Positions 7,206 through 52,560 of a stretch of 64,000 nt of DNA are shown here, one piece after another. This DNA comes from Spirulina sp. (GTDB taxonomy: Bacteria > Cyanobacteriota > Cyanobacteriia > Phormidesmidales > Phormidesmidaceae). The translations under genes were made by a program, and so were the position numbers. The stretch is from positions 64,001-128,000 of the forward strand of contig JBIPSI010000015.1 in assembly GCA_044070495.1 (NCBI GenBank). Direction: 5' to 3'. Each line of letters starts with the position of its first letter. Within the stretch, counting starts at the first letter, position 1. The notes below the pieces were generated by a model. That model worked only from the letters and a program-made list of their open reading frames with translations. It was not told the DNA's origin and made no database searches.

Positions 7206-8261
7206 CTAGAACGCCATAACCTGAATGAGGGTGAGGCTGGTGAGGGCTAAAAACAGCCAGGACAGCCCCGCCAGCAGCAGCGGTTTGAGGCCCAGGTTCA
7301 CCAGCTTAGACAGGTAGGTTTCTAGACCCATGGCGGCGAGGGCCATACAGAGCAGGACTTGGTTGACCTGGGCCACGGCAGCCTTGAGGGCGGTGGGAAA
7401 AATCTGCAAACTATTCAGCAGTACCAATCCAGCAAAAAACAATACAAACCAGGGAATCGGTAGGGTTTTGGGTGAACCGCCATGGGCTTGAGATCCCCGC
7501 GCCTGCCAGCCTAGACCCAACAGAATCGGCACAATCAACAGCACGCGGGAGAGCTTGGCCACGGTGGCGATGTCGCCGCTGGCGGTGCTGTGCTGAAAGG
7601 CGGTGGCAATCACCTGGGCGACTTCGTGGATAGAAGCTCCGCACCAGAGGCCAAAGGTTTCGGGCGAAAGCTGTCCCAATCCTGCGATTAGGGGATAACT
7701 CACCATGGCCAGGGTGCCGAATCCGGTGATGGTGGCGATGGCGTAGGTCATGTCTTCTTCGGAACCATCCACCACGGCATTGGTGGCCACGATGGCCGAG
7801 GCCCCACAGATGGAGGTGCCCGCCGCAATCAGCCGCGTCAGTTTGGGGTTCACCTGCAACCGCTTGCCTAACCAGGTTGTGAGGTAAAAGGTGCTGACGG
7901 TGCTGGAGACAATAATCGTTAACCCCACAGGGCCAACGGCCAAAATTTCCGCCATGCTGAGCCGCAAGCCCAACAAAATTACCGCCAGCCGCAGAACGCG
8001 CTTCATCGCCAGTTGAATGCCGGGACGATAGACCCCAGGCAGGGGAACCAGTTGACGCACCGCAATCCCCAACAGCACCGCCACCAGCAAGGGGTTCAGC
8101 AGCTTGATCCCCGCACTATGGCTGAGGTGGCCAATTCCCAACGCCAGGGCCGCCAATAATCCCGTCAACCCCAGACCGGGAAGCCAAGCCTTCAATTGGG
8201 CTGTCCAGGAGAGAGAGGCCGAAGCCGGAGATGGAATATCCGTTTTTGCAGAAACTTTCAT
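7206..8261 (-). CDS. YeiH / putative sulfate exporter family membrane protein
   Basis: LLGLRL, GTSICGASA, GASIHEVAQV, KLSRV and PWF motifs; about ten TM segments. Confidence 0.9.
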   Translation of the reverse strand: MKVSAKTDIPSPASASLSWTAQLKAWLPGLGLTGLLAALALGIGHLSHSAGIKLLNPLLVAVLLGIAVRQLVPLPGVYRPGIQLAMKRVLRLAVILLGLRLSMAEILAVGPVGLTIIVSSTVSTFYLTTWLGKRLQVNPKLTRLIAAGTSICGASAIVATNAVVDGSEEDMTYAIATITGFGTLAMVSYPLIAGLGQLSPETFGLWCGASIHEVAQVIATAFQHSTASGDIATVAKLSRVLLIVPILLGLGWQARGSQAHGGSPKTLPIPWFVLFFAGLVLLNSLQIFPTALKAAVAQVNQVLLCMALAAMGLETYLSKLVNLGLKPLLLAGLSWLFLALTSLTLIQVMAF

Positions 8262-9588: not shown

Positions 9589-10695
9589 CTACAAGTTGGC
9601 CGTTGCCAAGGCTGGGGCTGGCTCCACCTTGGCCCCAAAGGTGGCGTTTAACCCCTGGGCAATGTTGCCGAAAATTTGGCTGAGGGGGGCATCGGGTTCA
9701 CAGAGGGGCAGGGGCACTCCGGCATCGCCCTGGGCGCAGACACGGGGGTCGATGGGCACCTGGCCCCAGAGGGGAACCGAGAGTTCCGCCGCCATTTGGG
9801 CACCGCCACCGCTGCCAAAGATGGGGGTAGGTTCGCCGCAGTGGCCGCAGAGGAGGTAGCTCATGTTTTCCACCAGGCCCAGCACGGGCACCCCCACCTG
9901 GCGGAACATATGGACGCTGCGCCGCACGTCGGAAATGGCCACCTGCTGGGGGGTCGTCACCATCACCACGCCGCAGATGGGGCTTTCTTGGACGATGGTA
10001 ATCTGGGCGTCGCCCGTGCCGGGGGGCAGGTCAATCAGCAGATAGTCCAACTCGCCCCACTCCACATCATGGAGAAACTGGGTGATGATTTTGTGCATCA
10101 CCGGGCCACGCCACGCCAAGGGATGATCCCGTTCCGCCAGCAGCCCCACGGACATGAGCTTGATGCCGTGGGCCTCTAGGGGTCGGAACCGCTGCCCGGT
10201 GGGGGTGTCGATCACCTGCACCTGGGATTGGCCCAGGCCGAGCATTTGGGGCACATTGGGGCCGTAGATGTCGGCATCCAATAAACCTACCTTGGCCCCG
10301 GTTTTGGCTAGGGCAGCGGCTAGGTTCACCGCCGTGGTGGATTTGCCCACACCCCCTTTGCCACTGGAAACCGCCAGGGTGGTGCGTACCCCCGGAATGG
10401 TGCAGAGTTCGGCGTAGGCTTTTTTGCACCAGGGCAGTTGCGCCAGGGTAGTTTGCACCTGGTCTTGCAGGGCCAACTGGTGCCGCCCCACATACAGCCG
10501 CAGATAGACGTAATCGCCCACCACCCGCAGGTTTCGCACCATGCCCAGGCTCACCAAGTCGGTGCCCAGGGTGGGTTCTTTGAGGGTTTTTAGCAGGGCC
10601 ACCACCTCGGATTTACGATTCAATTCCTCAGGGCTGGGGGGCGCTTCGGCGGGGGCAGCATCGGCCCGATGGAAGGGAGAGGTGTGGCTAGACAT
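9589..10695 (-). CDS. apbC: Mrp/NBP35 (ApbC) Fe-S cluster carrier ATPase with N-terminal DUF59-like domain
   Basis: SGKGGVGKST, DADIYGPN, WRGP, DLPPGTGD, ENMS..CGHC; ATG at 10695 overlaps the upstream stop. Confidence 0.9.
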   Translation of the reverse strand: MSSHTSPFHRADAAPAEAPPSPEELNRKSEVVALLKTLKEPTLGTDLVSLGMVRNLRVVGDYVYLRLYVGRHQLALQDQVQTTLAQLPWCKKAYAELCTIPGVRTTLAVSSGKGGVGKSTTAVNLAAALAKTGAKVGLLDADIYGPNVPQMLGLGQSQVQVIDTPTGQRFRPLEAHGIKLMSVGLLAERDHPLAWRGPVMHKIITQFLHDVEWGELDYLLIDLPPGTGDAQITIVQESPICGVVMVTTPQQVAISDVRRSVHMFRQVGVPVLGLVENMSYLLCGHCGEPTPIFGSGGGAQMAAELSVPLWGQVPIDPRVCAQGDAGVPLPLCEPDAPLSQIFGNIAQGLNATFGAKVEPAPALATANL

Positions 10696-25524: not shown

Positions 25525-25770
25525 TCAACCAACCTCATCTAGCTCAGGAATATATTCAGCTTCGTAATTTTCAATTAAGACACCAATCACATCCATCATT
25601 GAAGCAAGGGGATGGGTCTCATCTTCACCGACCTGATCAATTAAACCATCTAGCAATTCAACTAACTGCTCATATTGTTGCTCGGTGTGCGGAACAAAAA
25701 CAGTCCTGGCAATTGAATTCCAGGCTCTAATTGTGTTGTCCAGATCGAGACTTAGCATAATTTCTTCCAC
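25525..25770 (-). CDS. HigA-like antitoxin (N-terminal domain only, no HTH)
   Basis: LLDGLIDQVGEDETHPLASMMDVIGVLIENYE; immediately downstream of HigB. Confidence 0.7.
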   Translation of the reverse strand: MEEIMLSLDLDNTIRAWNSIARTVFVPHTEQQYEQLVELLDGLIDQVGEDETHPLASMMDVIGVLIENYEAEYIPELDEVG

Positions 25771-26045
25771 CTCTTTTCGTCATATTCTGCATGAGTCAAC
25801 ACAGCCCGAATGTAAACCTTTCTTCGATTGTAGTGAATTGCTGCAATGAGCCTAACCTGATTGCCTCCAATATTGAAAACTGTCAACTTTCCAACCTGAT
25901 CAGCCGATGGAAATAATTCACGTAACTCAACAAATGACGAAAACTTGTTCTGCTTAATAAGTCTGTACCATTGAGCTAGAGCGTTCTTGACCTCTGGATG
26001 AAGTTTGGCAAATTCGTTAAGCCGCCTACGAGTAATCACATGCAT
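25752..26045 (-). CDS. higB: HigB-family toxin
   Basis: MHVIT, FPSADQVG..VFNIGGN..RLI, THAEYD. Confidence 0.9.
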   Translation of the reverse strand: MHVITRRRLNEFAKLHPEVKNALAQWYRLIKQNKFSSFVELRELFPSADQVGKLTVFNIGGNQVRLIAAIHYNRRKVYIRAVLTHAEYDEKRWKKLC

Positions 26046-41300: not shown

Positions 41301-41669
41301 CTAGTCAACTCCAGAGTTCAGCAATCTGAAGCGATGGCCATCTTTGGTCACAACCACAAAGGCCTTCTGCAACGCTTCCATCGAGTATTGGGTGATGACT
41401 CGGCTCAACTCCCGGTGTACGGCATCCATTGTGGATGGCACCATCCGTAGGTAAATAACTCCTGTGCCCTGGGATCGCACAAAAACCAAAGTGCCATAGT
41501 CTCGATCCCGAGTGATCAAGATTCGCCCTTGGGCTTGAGCTAAACTGAGGATGGTTTCATCTGTGGCTCGTGCCATTCCCAGGGATGAAACACGAACTAG
41601 GTCGTAGCCCTTGTCTTGCAAAAATCGTTCTGTCTTGGCATAGACATCTTGATCCAATAAAAACCTCAT
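41301..41669 (-). CDS. DUF5615 (Mut7-C/PIN-like) toxin
   Basis: MRFLLDQDV, ATDETIL, LITRDRDYG. Confidence 0.85.
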   Translation of the reverse strand: MRFLLDQDVYAKTERFLQDKGYDLVRVSSLGMARATDETILSLAQAQGRILITRDRDYGTLVFVRSQGTGVIYLRMVPSTMDAVHRELSRVITQYSMEALQKAFVVVTKDGHRFRLLNSGVD

Positions 41670-41896
41670 ACCGCAGACGGAACAAGATTGATGTCCTCAG
41701 CCGCAATTAAAGCAATGGCATAACGTAGACAAGCTTGGATATCTTCAACGGATAAGTCTGGATAGTAGTCGGTGGTAATTTCCCCAAAGGAAAGCCCTTC
41801 AGTCAACAGTTCCAGCACGTTTTGTACCGTAATGCGCGTCCCTGCCACACAGGGTTTTCCAAAGTGAATCTGGGAATCAACTGAGATTCTATTCAT
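41666..41896 (-). CDS. DUF433 antitoxin
   Basis: GKPCVAGTRITV, YPDLSVEDIQACLRYA; overlaps the toxin start. Confidence 0.9.
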   Translation of the reverse strand: MNRISVDSQIHFGKPCVAGTRITVQNVLELLTEGLSFGEITTDYYPDLSVEDIQACLRYAIALIAAEDINLVPSAV

Positions 41897-42169
41897 ATCA
41901 GTACCCAATCCTATTGAAAGAAACGTCTTCAAGCCGTTGGATTTAATCAAAAAAACTGAATACTGAAACCGTGGGTTTTAGGAAAGGAGAATGCTCCATT
42001 GGTCACTATCCAGCGGGTTTGCGATGCATGTAGTTTAGCGTAGGGTACAGGGCTTAAACTACAGATGCGATTCAAGGTCTTGCAGAAGACTCTGAGTGCG
42101 GCTTTCCTCGTCGTGAAACCTCGGTTCTGCTGATGGTGGGCAGTGCCCACCCTACAGGAACTCGGTGAT

Positions 42170-42955
42170 TTAATACTCCACAATCACCGGGGTATGGTCG
42201 CTGGGTTTTTCGAGGCGGCGGGGTTCGAGGTCGATGGTGCAGGCGGTAGCCCGCTCATACAGCGGGGGCGAAAGATAGTGATGGTCGATTCGCCAGCCCA
42301 GGTTGCGGCGGAAGGACGCGGCGCGATAATCCCACCAGCTAAAGTGTCCGCCCTCGTCGGTGAACTTGCGAAAGGCATCGGCCAAGCCCACGGAAAGCAC
42401 ATCCCGCAGGGTCTCCCGTTCCACCGGGGAGGACATAATGTGTTTCTCCTTGCCCTCTGGGTTATAGATATCTTTGTCCTCTAGGGCAATGTTGAAATCG
42501 CCGCAGACGTTGAGGTTGGGGTATTCCTGAAGTAAGGCCGCTAGGTACTCCTTCAAACAGGCCAGCCACTTCAATTTGTACTCATATTTTTCGCTGCCGA
42601 TGGAACTGCCGTTGGGCACATAGAGGTTCACCACGTAGGTGTCGCCCCATTGTCCGGCAATGACGCGCTTCTGATCGTCCAAATCACCGACCCGGTCTTC
42701 CCCCAACACGGCGGCAAATCCCCGCTGCACATTTTCCATGGGCTGACGGCTGATCAGGGCCACGCCGTTGTAGGATTTTTGGCCATAGATATAGGTGTGG
42801 TAGCCCAAGGCCTCAAAGGCCGCCGCCGGAAAATCGGTGTCCACCACCTTGGTTTCCTGTAAACACAGCACCTCCACCGGGTTCGCCTGGAGCCACTGCA
42901 CGGCATGGTCGAGGCGAGAGCGAATGGAATTGACGTTCCAGGTGGCAACTTTCAT
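42170..42955 (-). CDS. xth: Exodeoxyribonuclease III
   Basis: TWNVNSIR, LQETK, YVPNG, GDFN, WWDYR, GWRID, SDHTP. Confidence 0.97.
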   Translation of the reverse strand: MKVATWNVNSIRSRLDHAVQWLQANPVEVLCLQETKVVDTDFPAAAFEALGYHTYIYGQKSYNGVALISRQPMENVQRGFAAVLGEDRVGDLDDQKRVIAGQWGDTYVVNLYVPNGSSIGSEKYEYKLKWLACLKEYLAALLQEYPNLNVCGDFNIALEDKDIYNPEGKEKHIMSSPVERETLRDVLSVGLADAFRKFTDEGGHFSWWDYRAASFRRNLGWRIDHHYLSPPLYERATACTIDLEPRRLEKPSDHTPVIVEY

Positions 42956-43099: not shown

Positions 43100-44734
43100 A
43101 TGGCGAGTGTTTTTCGGCAATTGAAGGAAACCTTTGGTGGCTTTGGCACCGCGCTCACGGAGGAGGTGCGGGAGTCGGTGCGGGACACGCTGCGGGAGTG
43201 GTTAGAGGCCCATGGGGATAGCCTGCGACCCAAGCAGGGCGGCTTTAACGGCACCATGATGCAGTACTTCCATTGGTATACCCCCGCCGATGGCGAGCAT
43301 TGGAATCGGGTGCGGGAAGAAGCTCCGGCCTTGGCGGAGGTGGGGATTTCGGCGTTGTGGTTGCCCCCGGCCTACAAGGGCATTGGCGGTGGCTACGATG
43401 TGGGCTATGGGGCCTACGACCTGTTTGATTTGGGCGAATTTAACCAGCAGGGCACCGTTCGCACCAAGTACGGCACTAAGGATGAGTATTTGGCCGCTGT
43501 GAAGACCTGCCGCGACCTAGGGATTAATATCTATGCCGATGTGGTGTTTAACCACAAAATGGCGGCGGATTTTGAGGAAGAATTCAACGCCACGCCGATG
43601 GATCCCCAGAATCGCCATCGTCCTCTGGGGGACATGCGGCGGATTAAATCCTGGACGGGGTTTAACTTTCCGGGGCGGGGCAGCACCCATTCCAGCATGG
43701 CTTGGCACTGGTACCACTTCGATGCCGTTGACTACAACAGCTACGATCCGAACTACAGGGCCGTATGGCTGATGGAGGGCAAAGCCTTTGAGGATAAGGT
43801 GGGCTTGGAATTAGGCAGCTACGACTATTTGATGGGCTGCGATTTGGATATCGACCATCCCCAGGTGCGGGGCGAGTTGAAATACTGGGGCGAGTGGCTG
43901 CTGGATACCGTGGGGGTGGATGGCTTCCGGCTGGATGCCATTAAGCACATCTGCGGCGACTTTTTTGTGGACTGGATCGACCACCTAGAAGCCTATGCCC
44001 AGCGGGATTTGTTCTGCGTGGGGGAATACTGGACCTACGACCTGAACACCCTGCGATGGTATGCGGGCAATTCTGGCGGGCACCTGAACCTGTTTGATGC
44101 GCCGCTGCACAACAATTTCCACAGGGCCAGCAAATCCGGCGACCGCTACGACATGCGTACTATTTTCGACAACACCGTGGTGCAGGACATGCCCTTGCTG
44201 GCCGTCACCCTCGTCGAAAACCACGATACTCAGCCGCTACAGGCGTTGGAATCGGTGGTAGAAGCCTGGTTTAAGCCCCTGGCCTATGCCCTAATTTTGC
44301 TGCGGGCGGAGGGCTATCCCTGCATTTTCTACCCCGACTACTACGGTGCCCACTACAAAGACAAAGGCCGCGACGGCAACGAGTACGAAATTTGGCTAGA
44401 TTCCCACCGAGCAATCCTCGACCGCCTGCTGAAGGCCCGTCAGCACTTTGCCCATGGCCCCCAGTACGACTATTTCGATCATCCCAATCGGGTGGGCTGG
44501 ACGCGGCTGGGCACCGAAGCCAACCCCCGCGCCATGGCGGTGATGCTCAGCAATGGCCCCGGCGGCGGCAAGTGGATGGAGGTGGGGCGACCCAACACCA
44601 CCTTCTACGACCTCACGGGCCACATCCCAGATACCATCACCACCAACAACGACGGCTGGGCCGAATTCCGCTGCAACGGCGGTTCTGTCTCCGTCTGGGT
44701 GGAAGATCACCCCATCCTGCGGGCATTTCGGTAG
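43100..44734 (+). CDS. Alpha-amylase (GH13, cytoplasmic AmyA type)
   Basis: NGTMMQYFHWY, DVGYGAYDLFDLGEF, DVVFNH, GFRLDAIKH, GEYW, VENHDTQ. Confidence 0.95.
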   Translation: MASVFRQLKETFGGFGTALTEEVRESVRDTLREWLEAHGDSLRPKQGGFNGTMMQYFHWYTPADGEHWNRVREEAPALAEVGISALWLPPAYKGIGGGYDVGYGAYDLFDLGEFNQQGTVRTKYGTKDEYLAAVKTCRDLGINIYADVVFNHKMAADFEEEFNATPMDPQNRHRPLGDMRRIKSWTGFNFPGRGSTHSSMAWHWYHFDAVDYNSYDPNYRAVWLMEGKAFEDKVGLELGSYDYLMGCDLDIDHPQVRGELKYWGEWLLDTVGVDGFRLDAIKHICGDFFVDWIDHLEAYAQRDLFCVGEYWTYDLNTLRWYAGNSGGHLNLFDAPLHNNFHRASKSGDRYDMRTIFDNTVVQDMPLLAVTLVENHDTQPLQALESVVEAWFKPLAYALILLRAEGYPCIFYPDYYGAHYKDKGRDGNEYEIWLDSHRAILDRLLKARQHFAHGPQYDYFDHPNRVGWTRLGTEANPRAMAVMLSNGPGGGKWMEVGRPNTTFYDLTGHIPDTITTNNDGWAEFRCNGGSVSVWVEDHPILRAFR

Positions 44735-44778
44735 ATCGACGTCACTCTGAAGCCAAATTTCAAGCTGGATCTGAGGGG

Positions 44779-45264
44779 CTAGGGCTGGGATGGCAAAGGT
44801 AGCTCAATTCCTAACTTGCCGCTCAGAACAACCACGTTATCCACAAAGTCGTTGGTGGCCGCTACCCCGCCTGCCACCCCACCTAACGCGAGGGTAGCCG
44901 CTGTGGCCAAAGCCGTCAGACGCTTTTTAAGTTTGGGCAAACTGCGCTGATCTTCGGGCTTCTGGATTTCAGCTTCCACATCGTCAATGTCGATGATGAG
45001 ATCCTCTTGCACCGCTGGGGGAAACTGGGTGGCCATTTGACGCAAGCTAGCGATGATGGTCAACAATTCTGCGGTAGAAACGCCACTGCTTTGGTTCACC
45101 CCTGCCGCCACCACCTGGGCCTGATCCTTGGCCTCGTTGACCACGTTGGCGATGTTACCCCCGTTAATCTGCGTGCCGATTTTATGGCCCGCTACCTTGT
45201 CGCCCATCACCTTGTCTCCAGCAATATTGTCGCCGCTGCCGTGTTGATAAATTGTGTTGGCCAT
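44779..45264 (-). CDS. Small protein with N-terminal GD-repeat motif and C-terminal helical/hydrophobic domain
   Basis: ATG at 45264 preceded by GAGGAGG; MANTIYQHGSGDNIAGDKVMGDK..., C-terminal LTALATAATLALGGVAGGVAA. Confidence 0.75.
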   Translation of the reverse strand: MANTIYQHGSGDNIAGDKVMGDKVAGHKIGTQINGGNIANVVNEAKDQAQVVAAGVNQSSGVSTAELLTIIASLRQMATQFPPAVQEDLIIDIDDVEAEIQKPEDQRSLPKLKKRLTALATAATLALGGVAGGVAATNDFVDNVVVLSGKLGIELPLPSQP

Positions 45265-45316
45265 GGTTAAGTCCTCCTCAGAAATCGTATGGCTAGGACA
45301 AGGTTGTGTTAAAGGA

Positions 45317-45583
45317 CTACGGAAAATAACGATAAAATTCGCGACGGTGCATAACACGCACAAAAAACACGATATCTTCTTCTAAAAACAATCCAATTCG
45401 ATAGTCGCCTACCCGGATACGAAAGTAATTATCACCACCTTTTAGCTTCTTGAGGTTAGAGATCTCATCTAGACGCTCTGTCCGCTCTACAGACTCAATG
45501 ACTTCTTTGATCTTTCTGAACAAGATCTTGTCGCTAGCCTTTCTCAGATCTTTCTCAAAGGTCTTGCGAAATTCAACCTTCAC
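45317..45583 (-). CDS. RelE/ParE-family toxin
   Basis: KKLKG..YFRIRVGDYRIG, HRREFY. Confidence 0.9.
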   Translation of the reverse strand: MKVEFRKTFEKDLRKASDKILFRKIKEVIESVERTERLDEISNLKKLKGGDNYFRIRVGDYRIGLFLEEDIVFFVRVMHRREFYRYFP

Positions 45584-45789
45584 TCGTCAGACTCCAGGAT
45601 GCTAAAAATAGCTTCCCGACTAACCGCATCAGAGTCTTTACCCTCATCAATGGCTTTAACCAAGGCCAAATCTTCCAGAGCTTCGGCCACCAGATCTTGA
45701 AATAAGTCGCGACGCTCCTGAAAAATCTCAAGAATTGCAGATTTAATCAACTCCTTGATTTGAGTTTCACTAAGGCTTGACTCCAGCAT
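45580..45789 (-). CDS. Putative antitoxin
   Basis: Acidic 69 aa, EALEDLALVKAIDEG, overlaps the toxin start. Confidence 0.75.
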   Translation of the reverse strand: MLESSLSETQIKELIKSAILEIFQERRDLFQDLVAEALEDLALVKAIDEGKDSDAVSREAIFSILESDE

Positions 45790-45832
45790 GGGATCTTGCT
45801 CCTTCAGTGTTGATGGTGTTTAGCGTTTAGAT

Positions 45833-48505
45833 CTAGGGTGGGCCGTGCTTATCACCCTGTACCAGGTCGCCAGCTACATTATCGCCCTTACCATGCTGGT
45901 GGGTGTTGTCTTGCTTGATGTTGACGTGGATTCCCCCATAGCGTTCTTCAATGTCAATGCCGCGTTCTTTCATGTCGCGTTGGCGGCGGGCTTCCACAGA
46001 TTCGTAGCCATCGAGGAGTTGGCGCAGATTTACCTTAATCCGCAGTTTGCCGATGGGGTAATCGACAATGCCCATGCCCTCTAATCCCAAAAGCTCTTGG
46101 TAATCCAGGGGCGGATGGTCGGGATGGTTGGGGACGGGTACCCATTCGGTGACTTCTAAATCGGCGAAGCTCTTGTGGATGCGGGTGAAGGTGTCGCGGA
46201 TGAGGGAGAGGAAGACGCGGCGGGTGGTGTCTCGTCCGGCGATGGCGATGAAGATTTTTTTGTCTTCGGGGTCGGCTTTGATGCGGGCCATGTTGTAGAC
46301 CTCGTCGCCCTCGCGGTAGGCCAGCATGACACCGCTGCGCCAGTGGATGTGGTTGTGGATTTTGTCGTGGCTGAGGACGATGAACCGCGACAGCACGCTC
46401 TCCGGCAGGATGCGGTAGTGGTACTGAAATTCTAGGGTGTCGCCCTCTAGGCGGATGTCTTCCGGTTCTTCCTTGGGCAGCAGACCGGGGATGAGGAAGC
46501 GAGGGCAGGGGCAATCGGGCAGCGCAAAGCAGAGCTGAAATTCCTGCATCAGTTCGGTGAGGTAGCGGTGGCGTTCGGGGGGGTAGCGCTCTGGAGGCAG
46601 TACGCGGCTGAGGTCATCGTAATCGAGGAGGCCTTTGCCCTGGGTTTTGAGGGTGTCGTCGCTGAGTAGGGCGTAGATGCCCGTGGTCACCCAGTCGGGG
46701 TTGAGGACGTTGGTGTTTTGCAAAAAGGAATGGTTGCGAAAATTGAGCACCAGGCCCAAATTGTGCAGCAGGTCGATCAGTTGGGTTTGGTTCTGTTCTT
46801 CGGGAATTTGGTTTTGGTAGCAGATGCCGATGTATTCGCCGTAGCTAATAAAGTCTTTATCCAGGGCTTCAAGCTGTTCTTTGACCTGGAACCAGGAGAG
46901 GGGCAGCAGGTTATAGACTTCTCGCAGTTTGCCGACTTCTGCGGTAATGGTGGCCCGCAGTTCTTCAATGCCTTGGCCACTCTGGCAGGAGGTTTCTAGG
47001 ATGGCGCAAATGTTGGGATATTTTTGCCGCAGGGCTTTGCGGTTGATGTCTAGGGGTTGTTCGTCGCTTTTGTTGCCGACGATGATGACGGGCGATTCGC
47101 CGCCAAAGCTTTGGATGAGTTTGAGCCAATATTCAATGCGGTTTTCTTCTTCGCTGGTGCGGCAGTTGCAGACGAGAATGTAGAGGCTGCGTTTGGTGAG
47201 AAAAAACTGGTGGGTGGCGTGGTAAATTTCTTGGCCGCCAAAGTCCCACACGTTGAGGCGCACGTCTTTGCTGTTGACATGAACGCCCCACTCTCGAACA
47301 GCAAGCCCATCGGTTTGAGATTCGTTGGGATTAAAGGCTCCCTCCATAAGTTGTTTGATTAGAGAAGTTTTGCCCACACTGCCTTGACCAACCAGCAGCA
47401 TTTTAGCTTCGTTAAGAGGCTTAACTTCACCACTGCGGAGCTGGCGCAGATAGCCAAAGATGTCCTCCACAGAGCCGGGATCTTCATGCAGTTTCGACGA
47501 TCCTAAAATTTCTGGGGAAATAGGCAGCGGATTTCGCCTTACATCTAAAGTTTTGAGCTTAGGTAGAGTTTCAAGCCATTCAGGACACTCAGAGATGTGG
47601 TTGATTTTTAAGTCGAGATTCTCCAGCCTAGAAAGTTGTCTAAGGCAGTCCGGAATTGTCGTTATTTGATTACCATAAAGTCGAAGACCAGTCAGATTAG
47701 AGAGAGATGTGATGCAATTTGGAATGGCCGTAATTTGATTATTTTCAAGCCAAAGTTCAGTCAGATAGTTGAGTTCGCCTATACAATTTGGAATTATCTT
47801 GATTTGATTGCCACCGAGCCAAAGCATCTTCAGACTTTTGAGTTCACCTATAAAATTCGGAATCATTTCAATTTGATTACCATATAGCCAAAGTGTCGTC
47901 AGACTTTTGAGTTCACTAATACAATCTGGAATTGTCTTGATTGGATTACCACTCAGCCAAAGTGTCATCAGGCTTTTGAGTTCACTAATGCAATTCGGAG
48001 TTGTCGTGATTTGATTGCCACTCAGCCCAAGCATCGTCAGACTTGTGAGTTCACCAATACAATTCGGAATCGTCGTGATTTGGTTAAGATCAAGTCTGAG
48101 CGCTGTCAGATTTGTGAGATCACTAATGCAATTCGGAATCATCTTGATTTGATTGCCATGGAGCAAAAGTGTCGTCAGACTTGTGAGTTCACCAATGCAA
48201 TTCGGAATCGTCGTGATTTGGTTAAGATCAAGTCTGAGTACTGTCAGATTTGTGAGTTTACTGATGCAATCTGGAATTATTGCTATTTGATTTCTCTCGA
48301 GCCTGAGTAACATCAGTTTTTTTAGTTCGCTAATGCCATCCGGAATTGTCGCGATTTGATTGCTACTGAGGTTGAGCTTTTGGAGATGAGTAAGTTTGCC
48401 AATTTCGGGGGGCAGTTCCGTCAACCCTTGGCCAGAAAGGTCTAGCTCTGTCCAGCCCTCGGCGGCGGCTTGGTCAATCAGTTGCAGCAGCTCATCTTGG
48501 GTCAT
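45833..48505 (-). CDS. LRR-Roc-COR (Roco) protein
   Basis: 13 LRRs of 23 aa; Roc GTPase GQGSVGKTS, WDFGGQE, NKSD; COR (W..VK..L, LHNLG, LNPDWVT); start MTQDELL at 48505 or ATG at 48514. Confidence 0.95.
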   Translation of the reverse strand: MTQDELLQLIDQAAAEGWTELDLSGQGLTELPPEIGKLTHLQKLNLSSNQIATIPDGISELKKLMLLRLERNQIAIIPDCISKLTNLTVLRLDLNQITTIPNCIGELTSLTTLLLHGNQIKMIPNCISDLTNLTALRLDLNQITTIPNCIGELTSLTMLGLSGNQITTTPNCISELKSLMTLWLSGNPIKTIPDCISELKSLTTLWLYGNQIEMIPNFIGELKSLKMLWLGGNQIKIIPNCIGELNYLTELWLENNQITAIPNCITSLSNLTGLRLYGNQITTIPDCLRQLSRLENLDLKINHISECPEWLETLPKLKTLDVRRNPLPISPEILGSSKLHEDPGSVEDIFGYLRQLRSGEVKPLNEAKMLLVGQGSVGKTSLIKQLMEGAFNPNESQTDGLAVREWGVHVNSKDVRLNVWDFGGQEIYHATHQFFLTKRSLYILVCNCRTSEEENRIEYWLKLIQSFGGESPVIIVGNKSDEQPLDINRKALRQKYPNICAILETSCQSGQGIEELRATITAEVGKLREVYNLLPLSWFQVKEQLEALDKDFISYGEYIGICYQNQIPEEQNQTQLIDLLHNLGLVLNFRNHSFLQNTNVLNPDWVTTGIYALLSDDTLKTQGKGLLDYDDLSRVLPPERYPPERHRYLTELMQEFQLCFALPDCPCPRFLIPGLLPKEEPEDIRLEGDTLEFQYHYRILPESVLSRFIVLSHDKIHNHIHWRSGVMLAYREGDEVYNMARIKADPEDKKIFIAIAGRDTTRRVFLSLIRDTFTRIHKSFADLEVTEWVPVPNHPDHPPLDYQELLGLEGMGIVDYPIGKLRIKVNLRQLLDGYESVEARRQRDMKERGIDIEERYGGIHVNIKQDNTHQHGKGDNVAGDLVQGDKHGPP
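47525..48421 (-). repeat. 69-bp tandem LRR-coding repeats
   Basis: 13 units; 48034..48118 and 48172..48256 match at 82/85. Confidence 0.9.
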
Positions 48506-48517
48506 GGGTGGCATCTC

Positions 48518-48946
48518 TTAGACAATCAGATGAATCCAGGCGTAGGCATTACCCACAGAATTAACAAGGCGACGATCTGCCGTCCATAACTCAGCAGTTA
48601 ATGTTTCAGCCAAGGCCAAATAGTGAGCGTCATAGGTCGCTGGCAGTGAGAATTGGTTTGCGATTTACCAAGCTCGCTTGTGTAAACTGGCATCACCATA
48701 AAGCTCAATATTTAAGCCAAGAGCAATCTCTAAGAACCCATGGGCAATCTCTAGAGAAAACTGCCCTGCTTTTGCCAGTCTATACAGGGCATTTGTAACT
48801 TTATAGAGAATAAGACTAGGCGCTGAAATGCTTGTTCCAGCTTCTATCCAGCCATTCCAAAGAACATGATAGGGAGATTCTTCTGGATCTGAAATCAACA
48901 GCCGTACCACAAAGCTGGCATCCACACACACGTTATCTAGGCTCAT
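48518..48946 (-). pseudogene. VapC/PIN toxin with an in-frame nonsense codon
   Basis: VCVDAS...HKRAW* (TAA at 48665-48667) continues in the same frame as IANQFSLPATYDAHYLALAETLTAELWTADRRL...WIHLIV*. Confidence 0.85.
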
Positions 48947-49206
48947 AGGATTGGAGGGTTCGACAAGATGCCGCTGAGAACAGTTTTATCGCGCTGCTCC
49001 CGTTCTTGGTGAATCAACTCTGCGACGGGTAGGTCAGCCATGTCGGCTTCGTTAGATTGGCGCAGGCGTCGATGGAGGCTGCGTAGACGCTTTTGGCTGA
49101 CTTTCCAGGCGGCTTTGCGATCCAGCTTGGTATACAGCAAGCTCCGTTCCGCCTCAGAAAGGGACTCGATGACCTGAAGAAGGGAGTCTACTAACTTTGT
49201 GTTCAT
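48943..49206 (-). CDS. Putative antitoxin
   Basis: MNTKLVDSLLQVIESLS; overlaps the PIN gene start. Confidence 0.7.
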   Translation of the reverse strand: MNTKLVDSLLQVIESLSEAERSLLYTKLDRKAAWKVSQKRLRSLHRRLRQSNEADMADLPVAELIHQEREQRDKTVLSGILSNPPIL

Positions 49207-49254
49207 GGCCAAAGGTGCAGTGACTAAACCTATTGTAAGCTCCCTAGATAGTTA

Positions 49255-49395
49255 AGCTCCGTCCAGCCCTCGGCGGCGGCTTGGTCAATCAGTTGCAGCA
49301 GCTCGTCTTGGGTCATGGGCGTGGGGGTGGCGGGTGTTTTTCCATTTATAGCGGCGTTTAGGGGCTGTTGGCGAGGTCAGAAACCCGGTTTCTTG
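49255..49395 (-). repeat. Copy 2 of the LRR-Roc-COR 5' end plus upstream segment
   Basis: Encodes MTQDELLQLIDQAAAEGWTEL, then NYLGSLQ* (49316..49230). Confidence 0.92.
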
Positions 49396-49409
49396 AGCAG
49401 GTGCACTAC

Positions 49410-49802
49410 CTACCAGAGAACCTTGATGATTTCCGCGTCTCGCAGCATGGTGTCGCGGCTAATCAGGGTTGCTTCATAGAGTTTTGCGGTGGCCGCAATG
49501 ATGCGGTCATGGATATCCCAGTGGCTAGGTAGCTCCAAAAGGCGTTGAAACGTGGGCAAATCGAATGGCACAATCGCGAAACCGTCGCCAGCTTCCAGAC
49601 GAGCCATGACCTCTTCTATGCCAACCGGGACTCTCTGTCGCTGGGCAATGTATGTCAGTTCAGCCAGAACTAGCGTGGATACCAACACCTGAGCATCCCC
49701 TACCTCCGCAGCACTCAGTACCTCGTGGGCCAAAGGTGAAAGCCGTGAGTCTTCAGCAATGAACCACGCTAGCGCATGGGTATCTGCAACAAAGGTATCC
49801 AT
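49410..49802 (-). CDS. VapC/PIN toxin
   Basis: VADTHALAW, LAE, DIHDRIIAATA, LISRD. Confidence 0.88.
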   Translation of the reverse strand: MDTFVADTHALAWFIAEDSRLSPLAHEVLSAAEVGDAQVLVSTLVLAELTYIAQRQRVPVGIEEVMARLEAGDGFAIVPFDLPTFQRLLELPSHWDIHDRIIAATAKLYEATLISRDTMLRDAEIIKVLW

Positions 49803-49813
49803 GGACAAATGGG

Positions 49814-50008
49814 CTATTCCTCGTAGGCATGGCTAAAAACGGCTCGCTGTGCCGCTGCAAAGTCATCCTCTGAAAAATCCACCCCTCGCCACAGCCCTTG
49901 AAGCTGAGTGGAGCGCGGCCCCACCTGGGTTTGCTGGAGAACCGTCTGCCGTAGATGTTCCAACTCTTGCTGCAAAGCCTCGATGCGGATAAGGAGGTAA
50001 TGACTCAT
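49814..50008 (-). CDS. Putative antitoxin
   Basis: 64 aa with LQGLWRG motif, directly upstream of the PIN gene. Confidence 0.7.
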   Translation of the reverse strand: MSHYLLIRIEALQQELEHLRQTVLQQTQVGPRSTQLQGLWRGVDFSEDDFAAAQRAVFSHAYEE

Positions 50009-50072
50009 ATCACGTCTGGCCCACGAATATTCTGAAAAAGCTGGCTCTATTGTAAGCGCCCTAGACCGCTTT

Positions 50073-50231
50073 GCCGGAAAGGTCTAGCTCTGTCCAGCCC
50101 TCGGCGGCGGCTTGGTCAATTAGTTGCAGCAGATCAGCTCATCTTGGGGCATGGGCGTGGGGGTGGCGGGTGTTTTCCCAGTTATAGTGGCGTTTAGGGG
50201 CTGTTGGCGAGGCCAGAAACGGGGCTTCTTG
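50073..50231 (-). repeat. Copy 3 of the LRR-Roc-COR 5' end plus upstream segment
   Basis: Near-identical to 48431..48510 except a 5-bp insertion (~50131-50135); upstream part matches 49320-49395. Confidence 0.92.
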
Positions 50232-50237
50232 GTAAAG

Positions 50238-50492
50238 CTAGGCTGTTTGGGCAATGGGTTGACCGAGATCATACAGAAACTCTGGTGCAAAGTCTGCCCC
50301 GTTGGGCCATTCAATAGTGCTGGTCTCAGGATTTAGAAAGACCTGCTTAAAGTATTCGACATCCTTCAGGGGTGCAAAAATTTCGCCGTACAGTTCTTGG
50401 GCTAGATCAACATCCACGATGGCCTGGTTGTTAAACGTTAGTCTAAGTTTGTAGTTATCTAAATACTCAACCGTCTCAACATGAAGAAACAT
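50238..50492 (-). CDS. DUF2442 antitoxin-like protein
   Basis: YKLRLTF, GEIFAPLKD, TIEWPNGADFAPEFLY. Confidence 0.88.
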   Translation of the reverse strand: MFLHVETVEYLDNYKLRLTFNNQAIVDVDLAQELYGEIFAPLKDVEYFKQVFLNPETSTIEWPNGADFAPEFLYDLGQPIAQTA

Positions 50493-50504
50493 CGTTAACC
50501 TCAT

Positions 50505-50762
50505 TTACTGCAAAGGCTCTACTTCATTCAGTGCTTTTCTCTGCCGTGCCAGTTCCCAATTTGCTAGAAGTTCTGTCTGGTGTAAGTCTAGCCATTCCAA
50601 CACCATCCGCAAAGCCCGCTTAGACATTCTGCCTTCAACCACCCCAGTTTCTATTTCCACAATAATTTCCTGTTCCTGATAACGAGCATGAAAATGAGGT
50701 GGTTGATGATCGTTATAGTTCATAAAAATAACGATGCCGTAGAATCGGCTAATGGTCGGCAT
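50505..50762 (-). CDS. DUF4160 toxin-like protein
   Basis: MPTISRFYGIVIFM..DHQPPHFHARY, ELLANW. Confidence 0.9.
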   Translation of the reverse strand: MPTISRFYGIVIFMNYNDHQPPHFHARYQEQEIIVEIETGVVEGRMSKRALRMVLEWLDLHQTELLANWELARQRKALNEVEPLQ

Positions 50763-50812
50763 AGCTAATGCCTCAAATGACTAAGTCCATTGTAGGCTCT
50801 CTAGATAGTCCT

Positions 50813-50896
50813 GCCAGAAAGGTCTAGCTCTGTCCAGCCCTCGGCGGCGGCTTGGTCAATTAGTTGCAGCAGCTCATCTTGGGTCATGGGTGTGGG
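50813..50896 (-). repeat. Copy 4 of the LRR-Roc-COR 5' end
   Basis: 50813..50892 matches 48431..48510 at 79/80; reads MTQDELLQLIDQAAAEGWTELDLSG, then RTI*. Confidence 0.95.
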
Positions 50897-50923
50897 CAAA
50901 TGAAGAGGTGGAAATTGGAAAAA

Positions 50924-51361
50924 CTAAGACAAATTTTCAAGATCTGCTAAGTCTTGAAGTCGGCCTGAGGCACGCTTATTAAGCTTGAGATTTTCTAGGT
51001 CGATAAAGTTAACCACAATGCCATCCATCTCCACCGTCAAACGATTGGTATAGCAGGTGGCAAAGTCAACACCATCTGGCGTTGTAATAAGATCAATAAG
51101 ACTCGGAGGATAACCTAATTGAATCACCTGATCTGGAGTCAAAAAGTCCTCTGCTTGAAGGTTCAGTGATGCGAATCCAAACTGCTTTAGAGCTTTTAGC
51201 ATATTGGCAGCATTCTCAGGCGTCATCTCAACCCAAATATCAATATCTTTGGTGTAGCGAGGATAGCCATGCAAAGCCACAGCATAACCGCCGATTACCA
51301 AGTAATTAACCTGATTATCGTTTAGTGACTGTATAAACTCTTTGAAATCTTGGTTCAGCAC
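50924..51361 (-). CDS. Nucleotidyltransferase-fold protein
   Basis: IGGYAV..HG.PRYTKDIDI, K.ASGR.QDLAD. Confidence 0.85.
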   Translation of the reverse strand: MLNQDFKEFIQSLNDNQVNYLVIGGYAVALHGYPRYTKDIDIWVEMTPENAANMLKALKQFGFASLNLQAEDFLTPDQVIQLGYPPSLIDLITTPDGVDFATCYTNRLTVEMDGIVVNFIDLENLKLNKRASGRLQDLADLENLS

Positions 51362-51524
51362 CGTATTTCCAGCAATGATACTGTTGGCGAAGATTTTCTA
51401 GCGCCCCAATTCTATCGATATAGGGCTGTGTTCGCCAGTAAGTGGCCTCTTGCTTAGGCGCATGAAGGCTAGCCTTAGTTACGACGGCTTGTATAGTACG
51501 CCGTTCGGATTCTGTCACGGTCAA
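51315..51524 (-). CDS. Small partner of the nucleotidyltransferase
   Basis: YWRTQP..DRIGALE.LR, RFQRV; overlaps the NTase start; GGAGG upstream. Confidence 0.65.
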   Translation of the reverse strand: MTVTESERRTIQAVVTKASLHAPKQEATYWRTQPYIDRIGALENLRQQYHCWKYGAEPRFQRVYTVTKR

Positions 51525-51555
51525 TCCTCCATACAGTACCTAAGACCTATCTTAA

Positions 51556-51689
51556 TCCACCGCCTCGGCGGCGGCTTGGTCAATCAGTTTCAGCGGCTCA
51601 TCTTGGGTCATGGGCGTGGGGTGGCGGATGTTTTCCCAGTTATGGCGGTATTTAGAGGCTGTTGGCGAGGTCAGAAGCCCGGTTCCTTG
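51556..51689 (-). repeat. Copy 5 (most diverged) of the LRR-Roc-COR 5' end plus upstream segment
   Basis: Reads MTQDEPLKLIDQAAAEAVD*; upstream part matches 49320-49395 and 50155-50231. Confidence 0.9.
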
Positions 51690-51700
51690 GGTAAGCGGGT

Positions 51701-51750
51701 CTACCAGAGAACCTTGATGATTTCCGAGTCTCGCAGCATGGTGTCGCGGC
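51701..51750 (-). pseudogene. Orphan 3' end of the PIN gene at 49410
   Basis: Matches 49410..49459 at 49/50 (RDTMLRDSEIIKVLW*). Confidence 0.9.
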
Positions 51751-51866
51751 ACGGATCTAGCCCCACGTAGCCTGCGTCGAATCCGCCCCCTACCCCGTGA
51801 AACTTTAGTTCGCCCATGTACGTCCAGATAACTCTAATCTTGAAAGATAGGTCTTTGGCAGCCACC

Positions 51867-52424
51867 ATGAAGCGATCACCCCTGTTCTCCCTAGCCCTAG
51901 CGAGTGTGGCGCTGATGGGCGCTGTCCCCACAGCCTTTGCCGCCGAGGAGGTGGAGTTGCGGTATCGGGGGCTGAGCCGCACCGTAGCCGTAGCGGATTT
52001 GGCGACCCTAGCGGAAACCGGGGAAGCTCCGGCGAGGCTGGAGGGAATTTTGCAGATGGCCGGACAGTCGCCAGAAACCCTGCAAACGGTGCTCAACCAC
52101 AGGCTCGAAACCGATGCGGTGGTCTTAGACAAAGCCCTCAACAGCCTGCCGGGAGAATGGTTGCTCGATCAATTAGGGCAAACCCTGCGTCCGGTCAGTG
52201 GGGAGGCCAGTCGGCAGGCGTTGCGGTCGGCACTGGTGCTGTCGGCCAGCGACGATGGTGATGTGACCCTGCTGGAGGTGTTGCAAGCCTACCCCACCGA
52301 AACCGTCGTCCTTGAAGTCGATCAGCTTCAGTCGGCCTTTGAACGGATAACCACCTTCCTAGAGCCAATTTCGCGGGTGCTGGGCGAGAACATCCTAGAA
52401 ATTATTCTCCGGGGCGGATTTTGA
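51867..52424 (+). CDS. DUF1400 (alpha/beta hydrolase N-terminal-like) secreted protein
   Basis: Signal peptide AFA-AE, LATLAETGE, ALRSALVLSA, LLEVLQAYPT. Confidence 0.8.
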   Translation: MKRSPLFSLALASVALMGAVPTAFAAEEVELRYRGLSRTVAVADLATLAETGEAPARLEGILQMAGQSPETLQTVLNHRLETDAVVLDKALNSLPGEWLLDQLGQTLRPVSGEASRQALRSALVLSASDDGDVTLLEVLQAYPTETVVLEVDQLQSAFERITTFLEPISRVLGENILEIILRGGF

Positions 52425-52560
52425 ACCCCCAGGGGGCTGCGGTAGGATGATGACCTAGAAAAATGCAGAAAATACGGTTTTGTCCGGGTTTAGGGTCAGC
52501 GGTCGGGCGTCAGCATGGGCCAACCCTAGGGCGGATGGTGTTCTTTTAAGTCGGTGCCCT

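Follow-up and report, generated by a model that had tools for sequence, protein, structure and literature searches.

Toxin-antitoxin-type cassettes stacked between copies of a Roco gene start in a Spirulina genome

The stretch of DNA analysed here, called the window, comprises 64,000 nucleotides (nt) of a Spirulina sp. genome (contig JBIPSI010000015.1). On its minus strand lies an intact gene for an LRR-Roc-COR (Roco) protein. From the start of this gene upstream, at window 48431-51611 and on the same strand, five copies of the gene's own start (57-80 nt each) alternate with four two-gene cassettes of the toxin-antitoxin (TA) type. Three of the five copies (2, 3 and 5) also carry an upstream promoter segment. 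The genome, a 74-contig draft of 5.3 Mb, is called G000; other G numbers denote further genomes of the genus.

Four labels serve to describe the parts. N is the coding start, running from the ATG to +75 at most. U is a segment of about 85-93 nt upstream of it, with a hairpin and a TATAAA box. L is a motif of 19-32 nt that lies 3' of the break in copies 2-4, and x stands for the few C-rich bases found before the ATG where U is missing. From the distal edge of the array to the gene, the features are these.

51701-51752, minus strand: PIN2 3' remnant (last 17 codons plus stop) at the distal array edge; 50 nt are 98% identical to 49410-49459
51555-51700, minus strand: repeat unit 5, with U5 at 51700-51612 and N5 at 51611-51555 (homology clear for 48 nt, degraded to about 57)
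50924-51524, minus strand: NTa/NTb cassette, with NTa at 51315-51524 and NTb at 50924-51361
50781-50923, minus strand: repeat unit 4, with x4 at 50923-50888, N4 at 50887-50813 and L4 at 50812-50781
50238-50762, minus strand: DUF4160/DUF2442 cassette, with DUF4160 at 50505-50762 and DUF2442 at 50238-50504
50047-50237, minus strand: repeat unit 3, with U3 at 50237-50153, N3 at 50152-50073 and L3 at 50072-50047
49410-50008, minus strand: AT2/PIN2 cassette, with AT2 at 49814-50008 and PIN2 at 49410-49808
49213-49409, minus strand: repeat unit 2, with U2 at 49409-49317 (repetitive extragenic palindromic (REP)-like hairpin and TATAAA box), N2 at 49316-49255 (62 nt of gene start) and L2 at 49254-49213
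48518-49212, minus strand: AT1/PIN1 cassette, with AT1 at 48943-49212 and PIN1 at 48518-48946
48517-48431, minus strand: copy 1, x1 plus N1, where N1 (48431-48505) is the first 25 codons of the real gene
45833-48514, minus strand: intact Roco gene, 893 amino acids, MTQDE start, ATG at 48505

Read along the minus strand, the order is thus PIN2 remnant, U5-N5, NTa/NTb, x-N4-L4, DUF4160/DUF2442, U3-N3-L3, AT2/PIN2, U2-N2-L2, AT1/PIN1 and x-N1-Roco. An earlier note, made from the letters of the window, had described such an array, and all of its elements were found at their places and in this order on the minus strand. With the corrections given below, the array of cassettes between gene-start copies is confirmed as real. 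One of these corrections concerns the distal edge, where the copy of the PIN2 3' end at 51701-51752 was absent from that description. The Roco protein itself has Pfam matches to LRR_8 (2e-46), Roc (6.2e-32), COR-A (8.6e-40) and COR-B (1.8e-32), and its domains follow in the order LRR, Roc GTPase, COR-A/COR-B.

The copies resemble the real gene start closely. Copy 4 is identical to copy 1 at 79 of 80 nt (98.75%), a count that had been given before and was reproduced; within the coding part, N4 shares 74 of its 75 bases with N1. Also against N1, N2 is identical at 60 of 62 nt and N5 at 48 of 57. N3 comprises 25 codons, thrown out of frame by an insertion of 5 nt, and N5 is truncated, which bears out the view of the spacers as Roco gene starts that break off early. 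Copies 2, 3 and 5 form a single 97-nt repeat family that includes the upstream segment, and this segment does retain its TATAA-like box and palindrome. In unit 4, only about 9 nt of homology, within x4, lie upstream of the ATG. Only 12 nt separate the PIN1 stop from the ATG of the real gene, which therefore has no promoter segment of its own.

The repeat belongs to this locus. A 186-nt unit has seven matches in the 5.3-Mb genome; five are the array copies and two are weak matches of 26-43 nt. The repeat is far beyond chance and, within the genome, confined to the array. This genome-wide search, which the earlier note had called for, sets aside the idea of a dispersed element unrelated to Roco starts. 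The L motif, tctagRgNgcYtacaatRg, behaves in the same way: its three exact matches in the genome all lie in the array, and one unrelated match occurs elsewhere at two mismatches or fewer, which rules it out as a genome-wide mark of cassettes. A part of the repeat, L, is not derived from the target.

Only one short element within U is dispersed. This is the palindrome GAAACC(C/G)GGTTTC (13-15 nt; window 49380 in U2), which stands at the start of U and has 91 copies in the genome at one mismatch or fewer. The first 2 Mb hold 42 copies, against 3 in a shuffle. Outside open reading frames (ORFs) lie 66 of the 91, and 36 of those 66 fall within 60 nt of a stop codon. In two Microcoleus genomes, too, the palindrome precedes the Roco gene (L086:6854-6926, L105:6789-6946). 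No paper that gives it as a literal string was found in the open-access literature searched. The genome encodes two Y1_Tnp (IS200/RAYT-type) homologues.

Cassettes that are small, co-oriented and set between repeats recall an integron, of course, and the array was examined for an attC site and for a recombinase. As single-stranded DNA, units 3 and 2 fold worse in the attC manner than their shuffles do (z +0.85 and +2.13). The DNA between the ORFs holds only 10-40 nt besides the repeat, so there is no room for another such site, and an Rfam scan of 44500-52500 at E<=0.1 gave no match. No catalytic domain of an integrase or transposase was found among the 68 window ORFs scanned; the window holds one IS630-like helix-turn-helix fragment (1279-1935). 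The earlier statement that no integrase, transposase or attC-like site lies at the array thus holds for the window, but not for the genome, which encodes an IntI-family integrase on another contig. This gene, C33:338-1309, lies at the start of its contig and scores 466.7 bits against a cut-off of 265. It is one of three clear tyrosine recombinases on other contigs.

The surroundings of the IntI gene deserve a record of their own. No cassette array is assembled next to it at C33. Its upstream region and first 50 or so codons recur, at 79-100% identity, as fragments on at least eight other contigs (C60:1-672, C28 at both ends, C23:35092-35346, C17, C53, C43, C4 and C25).

The cassettes are 0.5-0.7 kb long, hold two co-oriented genes each, and are single-copy in the genome. 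They appear, from their gene content, to be type II TA pairs: small, co-oriented genes that abut or overlap, with one member from a known toxin or antitoxin family. PIN2 matches Pfam PIN (9.9e-16). PIN1 is inactivated, and not by the frameshift that had been supposed: it carries a single in-frame TAA after codon 93. An intact 142-residue PIN1 orthologue in G012 matches Pfam PIN at 1.2e-05. AT1 is the presumed antitoxin of PIN1; neither it nor AT2 nor NTa matches a family. The DUF4160 and DUF2442 proteins match their Pfam families at 1e-22 and 1.8e-13, and resemble DhiT and DhiA (NCBIfam DhiT 7.6e-19, DhiA 4.6e-05), both below the curated cut-offs. NTb is a nucleotidyltransferase of the DUF6036 type (Pfam DUF6036 2.1e-08) and the only half of its pair with a family. 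The cassettes are unrelated and co-oriented, as had been claimed. They are not all AT-rich, as had also been claimed; by GC content only two of the four are, the two distal ones at 50.2-51.4 kb (0.42-0.47), against about 0.54-0.55 over AT2/PIN2.

Of the 53 genomes of the genus, 6 have the NTa/NTb unit, G000 among them, at differing loci and in differing contexts. In G005 an unrelated 80-nt direct repeat (88% identity) flanks it; no flanking repeat was found around the copies in G069, G061 and G075. The homology between G000 and G005 here is limited to 51522-50923, which is to say just the two ORFs. Separately, a paralogous DUF4160/DUF2442 pair lies at G000 C16:81795-82704, about 240 nt from one of the two Y1_Tnp homologues.

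The most direct evidence on how the array arose comes from the same locus in relatives. The repeat has a match at E<=1e-5 in 19 of the 53 genomes of the genus, G000 included, and more than one copy at one locus in G000 (5), G005 (4) and G012 (2), and by blastn also in G018 (two). The number of cassettes among relatives is none, one, three or four. Empty sites, with a single gene start and no cassette, are found in G007 and G024. G012 has a stranded start, an intact AT1/PIN1 pair and then the real start; its native upstream DNA, alignable with that of G007, stays on the stranded copy. G018 is arranged as is G012, with an internal deletion in PIN1. That the gene start was duplicated when cassettes entered, as had been proposed, is supported by this comparison of empty and filled sites. 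These variable states, their junctions and the empty sites can be read directly from the assemblies.

The order in which the cassettes arrived is another matter. The AT1/PIN1 orthologues of G012 and G018 share 72-76% of their amino acids with those of G000, and the Roco genes 71%. AT1/PIN1, shared with G012 and G018, has thus diverged about as far as Roco itself, which makes the proximal cassette the oldest one and not the newest. This contradicts strict serial insertion with the newest cassette beside the intact gene, as first proposed: the proximal AT1/PIN1 is the most widely shared, and the nucleotidyltransferase pair sits in a distal unit that was already stranded.

G005, the closest relative by its flanking genes, has a truncated Roco gene and a partly shared array. 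It begins with DUF2442, U-N-L, AT2, a 2.4-kb insert between the two copies of a duplication of about 387 nt, the 3' part of DUF2442, U-N-L, AT2 and a PIN2 remnant; after this remnant come U-N(+36), which forms an in-frame fusion with an MNT gene, then x-N and Roco. Its AT2/PIN2 cassette has lost most of PIN2 by deletion. The junctions DUF2442-U-N-L-AT2 and PIN2-U-N are shared with G000; the other cassettes differ. The duplication lies at L032 (G005:C179) 7207-7593 and 10024-10411 and is 97% and 92% identical in its two parts. The insert holds a 409-residue ORF with no Pfam or NCBIfam match.

Metagenome contigs tell a similar story. Among contigs of four metagenomes (Logan), contig X4 (367 nt, one mismatch) covers 50724-51090 and thus the whole of unit 4 with unique DNA on both sides, and in its metagenome 711 other letters take the place of the 808-nt AT2/PIN2 slot. 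The X9 metagenome has junctions of the G005 type, and contigs X4, X7 and X9 cross individual repeat units. Two further joints, 49324>50165 in X1 (30 letters on one side) and 50763>49001 in X7 (39 letters), were too weak and were set aside. Among sequencing runs, the largest share of the stretch in any one run is 0.21, short of half, and no RNA run with it is listed. Cassette number and content thus vary among relatives and metagenomes, as had been predicted, and a fixed, identical arrangement was not seen.

From other cyanobacteria, 80 Roco loci were collected; 51 with a recognisable start were assessed, and 29 without one were left out. In 2 of the 51, both from Microcoleus and one of them on a complete chromosome, a stranded second start lies 600-970 nt upstream. 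At L086 a DUF433 gene stands between the start copies, with a duplication of 202 nt; at L105 a VapB gene and a truncated PIN gene do, with a duplication of 162 nt. Second N-like matches at L074, L098, L104 and L116 were dismissed, as they are weak, span 12-15 residues and lie far off or on the opposite strand.

The architecture is not peculiar to Roco either. When the genome was compared with itself, 158 pairs of local direct repeats emerged (40-400 nt long, 300-4000 nt apart), many of them intragenic. Among them are at least four clean cases in which a housekeeping-type gene's 3' end and a stranded copy of it enclose TA-type pairs; the repeats are unrelated to one another. They are as follows (loci L038-L041).

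C39:9037-10030: 3' end of an ABC transporter gene, 104-nt repeat, enclosing a RelE-like pair
C44:4033-5204: 3' end of a UvrA-like gene, 175-nt repeat, enclosing DUF433/DUF5615
C27:41258-43725: 3' end of a DnaE-N gene with intein, 104-nt repeat, enclosing XisH/XisI and UPF0175/DUF3368
C9:8635-10251: 3' end of a TPR gene, 92-nt repeat in three copies, enclosing DUF433/DUF5615

In all four, the similarity stops at the stop codon or a few codons before it. C39 has its empty site in G027 and G005, which are single-copy there and share the downstream flank but lack the TA pair. The earlier idea that gene starts are a special target must accordingly be given up, since at least four other loci duplicate gene 3' ends. 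Two further repeat loci were noted. At C51:2079-5954, an intergenic repeat of 69-95 nt, present in three copies, flanks a PIN pair as well as a block with a likely DNA methyltransferase, called from its motif by eye; a HicA/HicB-like pair adjoins. This, too, is a cassette-like row. At C3:53898-58751, five copies of a 75-92-nt repeat lie between consecutive, co-oriented genes of 260-390 amino acids.

The differences between stranded and functional copies carry information as well. They fall at third codon positions in 12 of 14 cases at the G012 Roco start, 12 of 14 at C39, 4 of 4 at C9 and 5 of 7 at C27; the G000 Roco copies are too alike for this test. At C39, the functional copy matches G005 at 91 of 92 positions and the stranded copy at 93 of 105. 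The stranded peptide of L105 resembles a different Microcoleus allele class from that of the real gene. This pattern would fit copies that are often not fresh duplicates, but either alleles that were protein-constrained before they were juxtaposed, or the result of a later replacement of the functional copy.

On balance we lean, if only somewhat, towards an origin of the array by several insertions with long target duplication, which unequal homologous recombination among the copies of the gene start then concatenated and pruned. On this view the locus is a hot spot of recombination that was built in two steps; their chemistry and order we infer as follows. In a first step, incoming cassette DNA would be joined in such a way that part of the Roco gene start flanks it on both sides. 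The duplicated stretch would run from about -8 or -95 to +36...+83; the downstream copy would keep the gene intact, and the upstream copy would be stranded, usually with the native promoter. The likely chemistry would be host homologous recombination anchored in the conserved gene start, together with one illegitimate join. Campbell-type single-crossover integration of a circle with one start copy would be an equivalent route, and neither route would need a dedicated integrase. Conserved gene ends may be hit for the reason that they offer the last homologous anchor beside variable DNA, an anchor that would then be left on both sides.

In a second step, once two or more start copies exist, unequal homologous recombination between them could concatenate, delete and swap cassettes. 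The exchange might occur within one genome or with DNA of other strains, and the five-copy array of G000 would be such a concatenation. Copy 4 looks as would the crossover product of two array haplotypes, with a left half 'x-N' of the right-junction type and a right half 'N-L' of the left-junction type. A deletion between N2 and N1 in the array of G000 would give exactly the state of G005 before its MNT insertion, and the PIN2 remnant-U5 unit of G000 would be the counterpart of the PIN2 remnant-U unit of G005. Addiction to the TA pairs would then slow the loss of cassettes while the toxins decay.

Several lines of evidence speak for this origin. Among those already given are the empty and filled sites, the want of a recombinase domain in the window and of an attC-like fold in the repeat, the recurrence of the architecture with unrelated repeats in this genome and at Roco starts in Microcoleus, the differing loci of the NTa/NTb cassette, the copies that often differ as diverged alleles do, and the changing arrays; the description of this mode for RM (restriction-modification) genes, taken up below, is another. 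The left breaks lie at +36 (G005, fused to the MNT gene), +48/57 (copy 5), +62 (copy 2) and +75 (copies 3 and 4), and the duplications vary in length from about 43 to 387 bp. Such variable junctions are what illegitimate joins are expected to give. Unequal homologous recombination between the repeats, in turn, explains the rest of the array: the deletion state, copy 4 and the PIN2 remnant-U5 unit.

Several observations weigh on the other side. The right junctions of AT1/PIN1, NTa/NTb and the G005 MNT cassette fall within about 10 nt of one another, 6-16 nt upstream of the ATG; random illegitimate joining would be expected to scatter them more widely. Immediately behind the +75 break, L (19-32 nt) is common to three unrelated cassettes, which calls for either replacement of cassettes behind L or a recognised site. 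The cassettes are trimmed almost exactly to their ORFs; thus the homology between the nucleotidyltransferase pairs of G000 and G005 ends 2 nt inside the first base of the NTa start codon and 1 nt past the NTb stop. A bias towards third positions is absent at three loci, namely C44 (4 of 8, in the true frame, by hand), L086 (7 of 17) and L105 (9 of 29). The IntI-family integrase and the two further tyrosine recombinases of the genome could act in trans. Finally, all of the steps are reconstructed from static sequences, most of them short-read assemblies.

Clustered right junctions, the shared L and ORF-trimmed cassettes keep alive the view that the cassettes are integrative elements that do not move by themselves but depend on a site-specific recombinase whose gene lies elsewhere, and that their tandem integration gave the array. 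The same three facts lend support to a cassette system targeted to gene ends, to which we return below. The recombinase might be the IntI-family integrase of C33, another tyrosine recombinase, or an enzyme of the Y1/RAYT type that acts on the REP-like hairpin. Each circular cassette would bring with it an attP whose sequence repeats the Roco start, much as islands that target tRNA genes carry a tRNA 3' end. Such enzymes are at hand, as the IntI-family gene and the two Y1_Tnp homologues attest, and two cassettes have their left junction at precisely +75, with the shared L behind it. There is a precedent for stacking too: tycheposons, in the part of their description drawn on here, stack at one site and are parted only by partial copies of the target (10.1101/2020.12.28.424599).

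This view meets several difficulties, and we consider recombination in trans unlikely, if worth serious thought. Neither the window nor any cassette encodes a recombinase, and the repeat unit does not fold as an attC site does. L is confined to the array and is not found at the other TA cassettes. The breaks vary (+36, +48/57, +62, +75), and the 387-nt duplication has other ends altogether. Unrelated genes show this architecture too, with repeats that are themselves unrelated. The oldest cassette is the proximal one, the reverse of what accretion at an intact target would leave.

A bolder proposal is that cyanobacteria have an as yet undescribed activity dedicated to the moving of cassettes. 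This activity would set promoterless, ORF-trimmed TA cassettes at the ORF boundaries of conserved genes, each with a replacement gene end; it would recognise the N|L junction, the REP-like hairpin, or both, and its enzyme would act in trans. We hold this to be quite improbable. If true, it would be an analogue of the integron that is targeted to gene ends and has its integrase encoded at a distance.

Need there have been more than one insertion? L is homologous in all units, that of G012 included, as though the N|L junction had arisen once. The copies are 88-99% alike, as gene conversion would make them, and G005 contains an internal duplication. One might therefore propose a single ancient insertion of AT1/PIN1, followed only by local tandem duplication and by replacement or divergence of the cargo. 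The cargoes, however, come from unrelated families and cannot be derived from one another. At least three left junctions have no L (that of MNT at +36, that of the nucleotidyltransferase pair at +48/57, and that of the 387-nt duplication), and the nucleotidyltransferase cassette is present elsewhere in relatives, in G005 already with an independent duplication at its flanks, as a donor locus should have. A single insertion is, on these grounds, decidedly improbable.

We give little credence to a selected regulatory design, in which each stranded start (promoter, leader and a mini-ORF of 16-32 codons) drives a TA pair, Roco is read through, and the whole forms one stress or defence operon. The 12-nt gap between PIN1 and Roco would suit read-through; the stranded starts keep their peptide, with differences that are mostly synonymous; and a pair resembling -35 and -10 boxes, CTGGCA-17-TACAAT, spans the N4|L4 junction. 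A promoter consensus scan gave 3 promoter-like sites against 3.8 expected by chance, and 0 terminators; this is evidence neither way. Against the design, copy 3 is frameshifted and copy 5 truncated. The toxins are decaying, by a nonsense codon in the PIN1 of G000 and by deletions in the PIN1 of G018 and the PIN2 of G005, and relatives exist without any cassette.

That an assembler mis-joined the repeats or invented the cassette order is hardly credible: repeats of up to about 190 nt do exceed a typical short read, and the 74-contig genome is a draft, but three further assemblies from the genus show comparable arrays, as do two genomes of Microcoleus (one a complete chromosome), and metagenome contigs from other studies cross the junctions (X4 at 50724-51090, X7 at 49353-50130, X9 at 50135-50761).

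The neighbourhood of the Roco gene holds further pairs. Directly downstream, at 45317-45789 on the minus strand, lies a RelB-like/ParE pair (Pfam RelB_like_antitoxin 3.1e-17, ParE_toxin 4.5e-10), so that the gene has TA pairs on both sides; a direct-repeat comparison of the window found no repeats that bound this pair. It sits here between Roco and the gene for a 194-residue protein. An 18-residue motif is common to the C-terminal tail of Roco (HQHGKGDNVAGD...) and the N-terminal region of that protein, and it is present in all relatives examined (window 45833-45900, 45200-45300; loci L032-L037). Further off in the window are a DUF433/DUF5615 pair with a third small ORF (41301-42183), a gene for a HigB-like toxin (25752-26045), and, beside the IS630-like fragment, a 20-residue fragment (959-1018) that is 95% identical to the DUF4160 protein of the array.

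How, then, does the array compare with systems already known? It shares with integrons, and with clusters of attC sites lacking integrases (CALIN), co-oriented small cassettes trimmed near their ORFs and, in the same genome, a gene of the IntI family. TA pairs are a typical cargo of chromosomal integrons. Unlike an integron, the array has no adjacent integrase, its cassettes hold two genes each, and its spacers are copies of a host gene start and promoter without hairpin potential. With no adjacent IntI in the window and no attC fold, an integron or CALIN is ruled out.

Tycheposons come closer in layout, in that their elements are parted by partial copies of the target, the intact target stands at one end, and older remnants are scattered (10.1101/2020.12.28.424599). 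As that source portrays them, however, they have tyrosine recombinases of their own, a fixed crossover site, and newcomers beside the intact target (10.1101/2020.12.28.424599). The array has no recombinase, its breaks vary, and its oldest cassette is the one beside the gene. A tycheposon-like island is therefore ruled out: no cassette holds an integrase, there is no fixed core, and the order of ages is reversed.

The orphan toxin-immunity arrays downstream of rhs and cdiA genes, to judge from the accounts drawn on here, also set conserved fragments of a main gene between displaced cassettes; the likeness is one of logic only. Such arrays probably form through recombination within the conserved part of the gene. 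Their cassettes are alternative 3' ends of the main gene, in the same accounts, whereas the cassettes here are independent upstream operons and the repeat is a 5' end.

A cyanobacterial parallel is known from Microcystis aeruginosa PCC 7806, where a TA module is reported between two 152-bp direct repeats behind the MaOC1 orthocaspase gene (PMC7935541). Both cases thus have a type II TA pair, long direct repeats, and a signalling or protease gene beside them. The MaOC1 repeats differ in that they are intergenic, begin 14 bp after the stop and have a 16-bp inverted repeat; in the excerpts of that paper used here they are not described as copies of gene ends, and no array is described (PMC7935541). 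Apart from this case and work on restriction-modification (RM) genes, the open-access literature searched yielded no paper on TA cassettes with target duplication, and none at all in which TA cassettes are stacked between copies of a gene start.

From comparisons of genomes, insertion with long target duplication has reportedly been on record since 2000. Furuta, Abe and Kobayashi (2010) describe insertions of RM genes between repeats of 30-420 bp, without mobility genes and mostly in naturally competent species; the repeats often span a start or stop codon, and one Microcystis case is listed (PMC2853133, in the portion drawn on here). The mode is therefore not unnamed, as had been supposed, and a later review repeats the description for RM systems only (PMC3874152). 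The likeness to the array is considerable. In both, a selfish 'addiction' unit without mobility genes lies between direct repeats of variable length, the empty site is single-copy, and repeats at the translation start or stop keep the target gene intact.

The features by which that study recognises such insertions recur here one by one. Direct repeats of more than 30 bp flank the insert (57-190 nt around every cassette). A single-copy empty site exists (G007 and G024; at C39, G027 and G005). No mobility gene lies in or beside the insert, and the insert is shorter than 20 kb (cassettes of 0.5-0.7 kb). The cargo is not RM but PIN, DUF4160/DUF2442 and nucleotidyltransferase pairs, and so the locus is a variant of such insertion rather than a strict member. 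Unlike the RM insertions, moreover, it is a stacked array of five repeats at one gene start; the same start is hit in several lineages, the copies often look like diverged alleles, and L is not target-derived.

The array is thus a variant of a known insertion mode that is mechanistically unexplained, with a mechanism that we infer. As no mechanism has been demonstrated for this mode so far, a rich natural record of it has some value. The locus is such a record: several independent events at one target of about 170 bp, with empty, single and multiple states in relatives. The mechanism can be tested directly if such an array is present in a relative that is cultured or can be transformed. For annotation, there is a caution: stranded starts give rise to small ORFs that are spurious, and the intact gene no longer has a promoter of its own. 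Compared with what was known, the locus extends long target duplication from RM systems to type II TA pairs, and it suggests target duplication followed by unequal recombination as a route to integron-like arrays without an integron.

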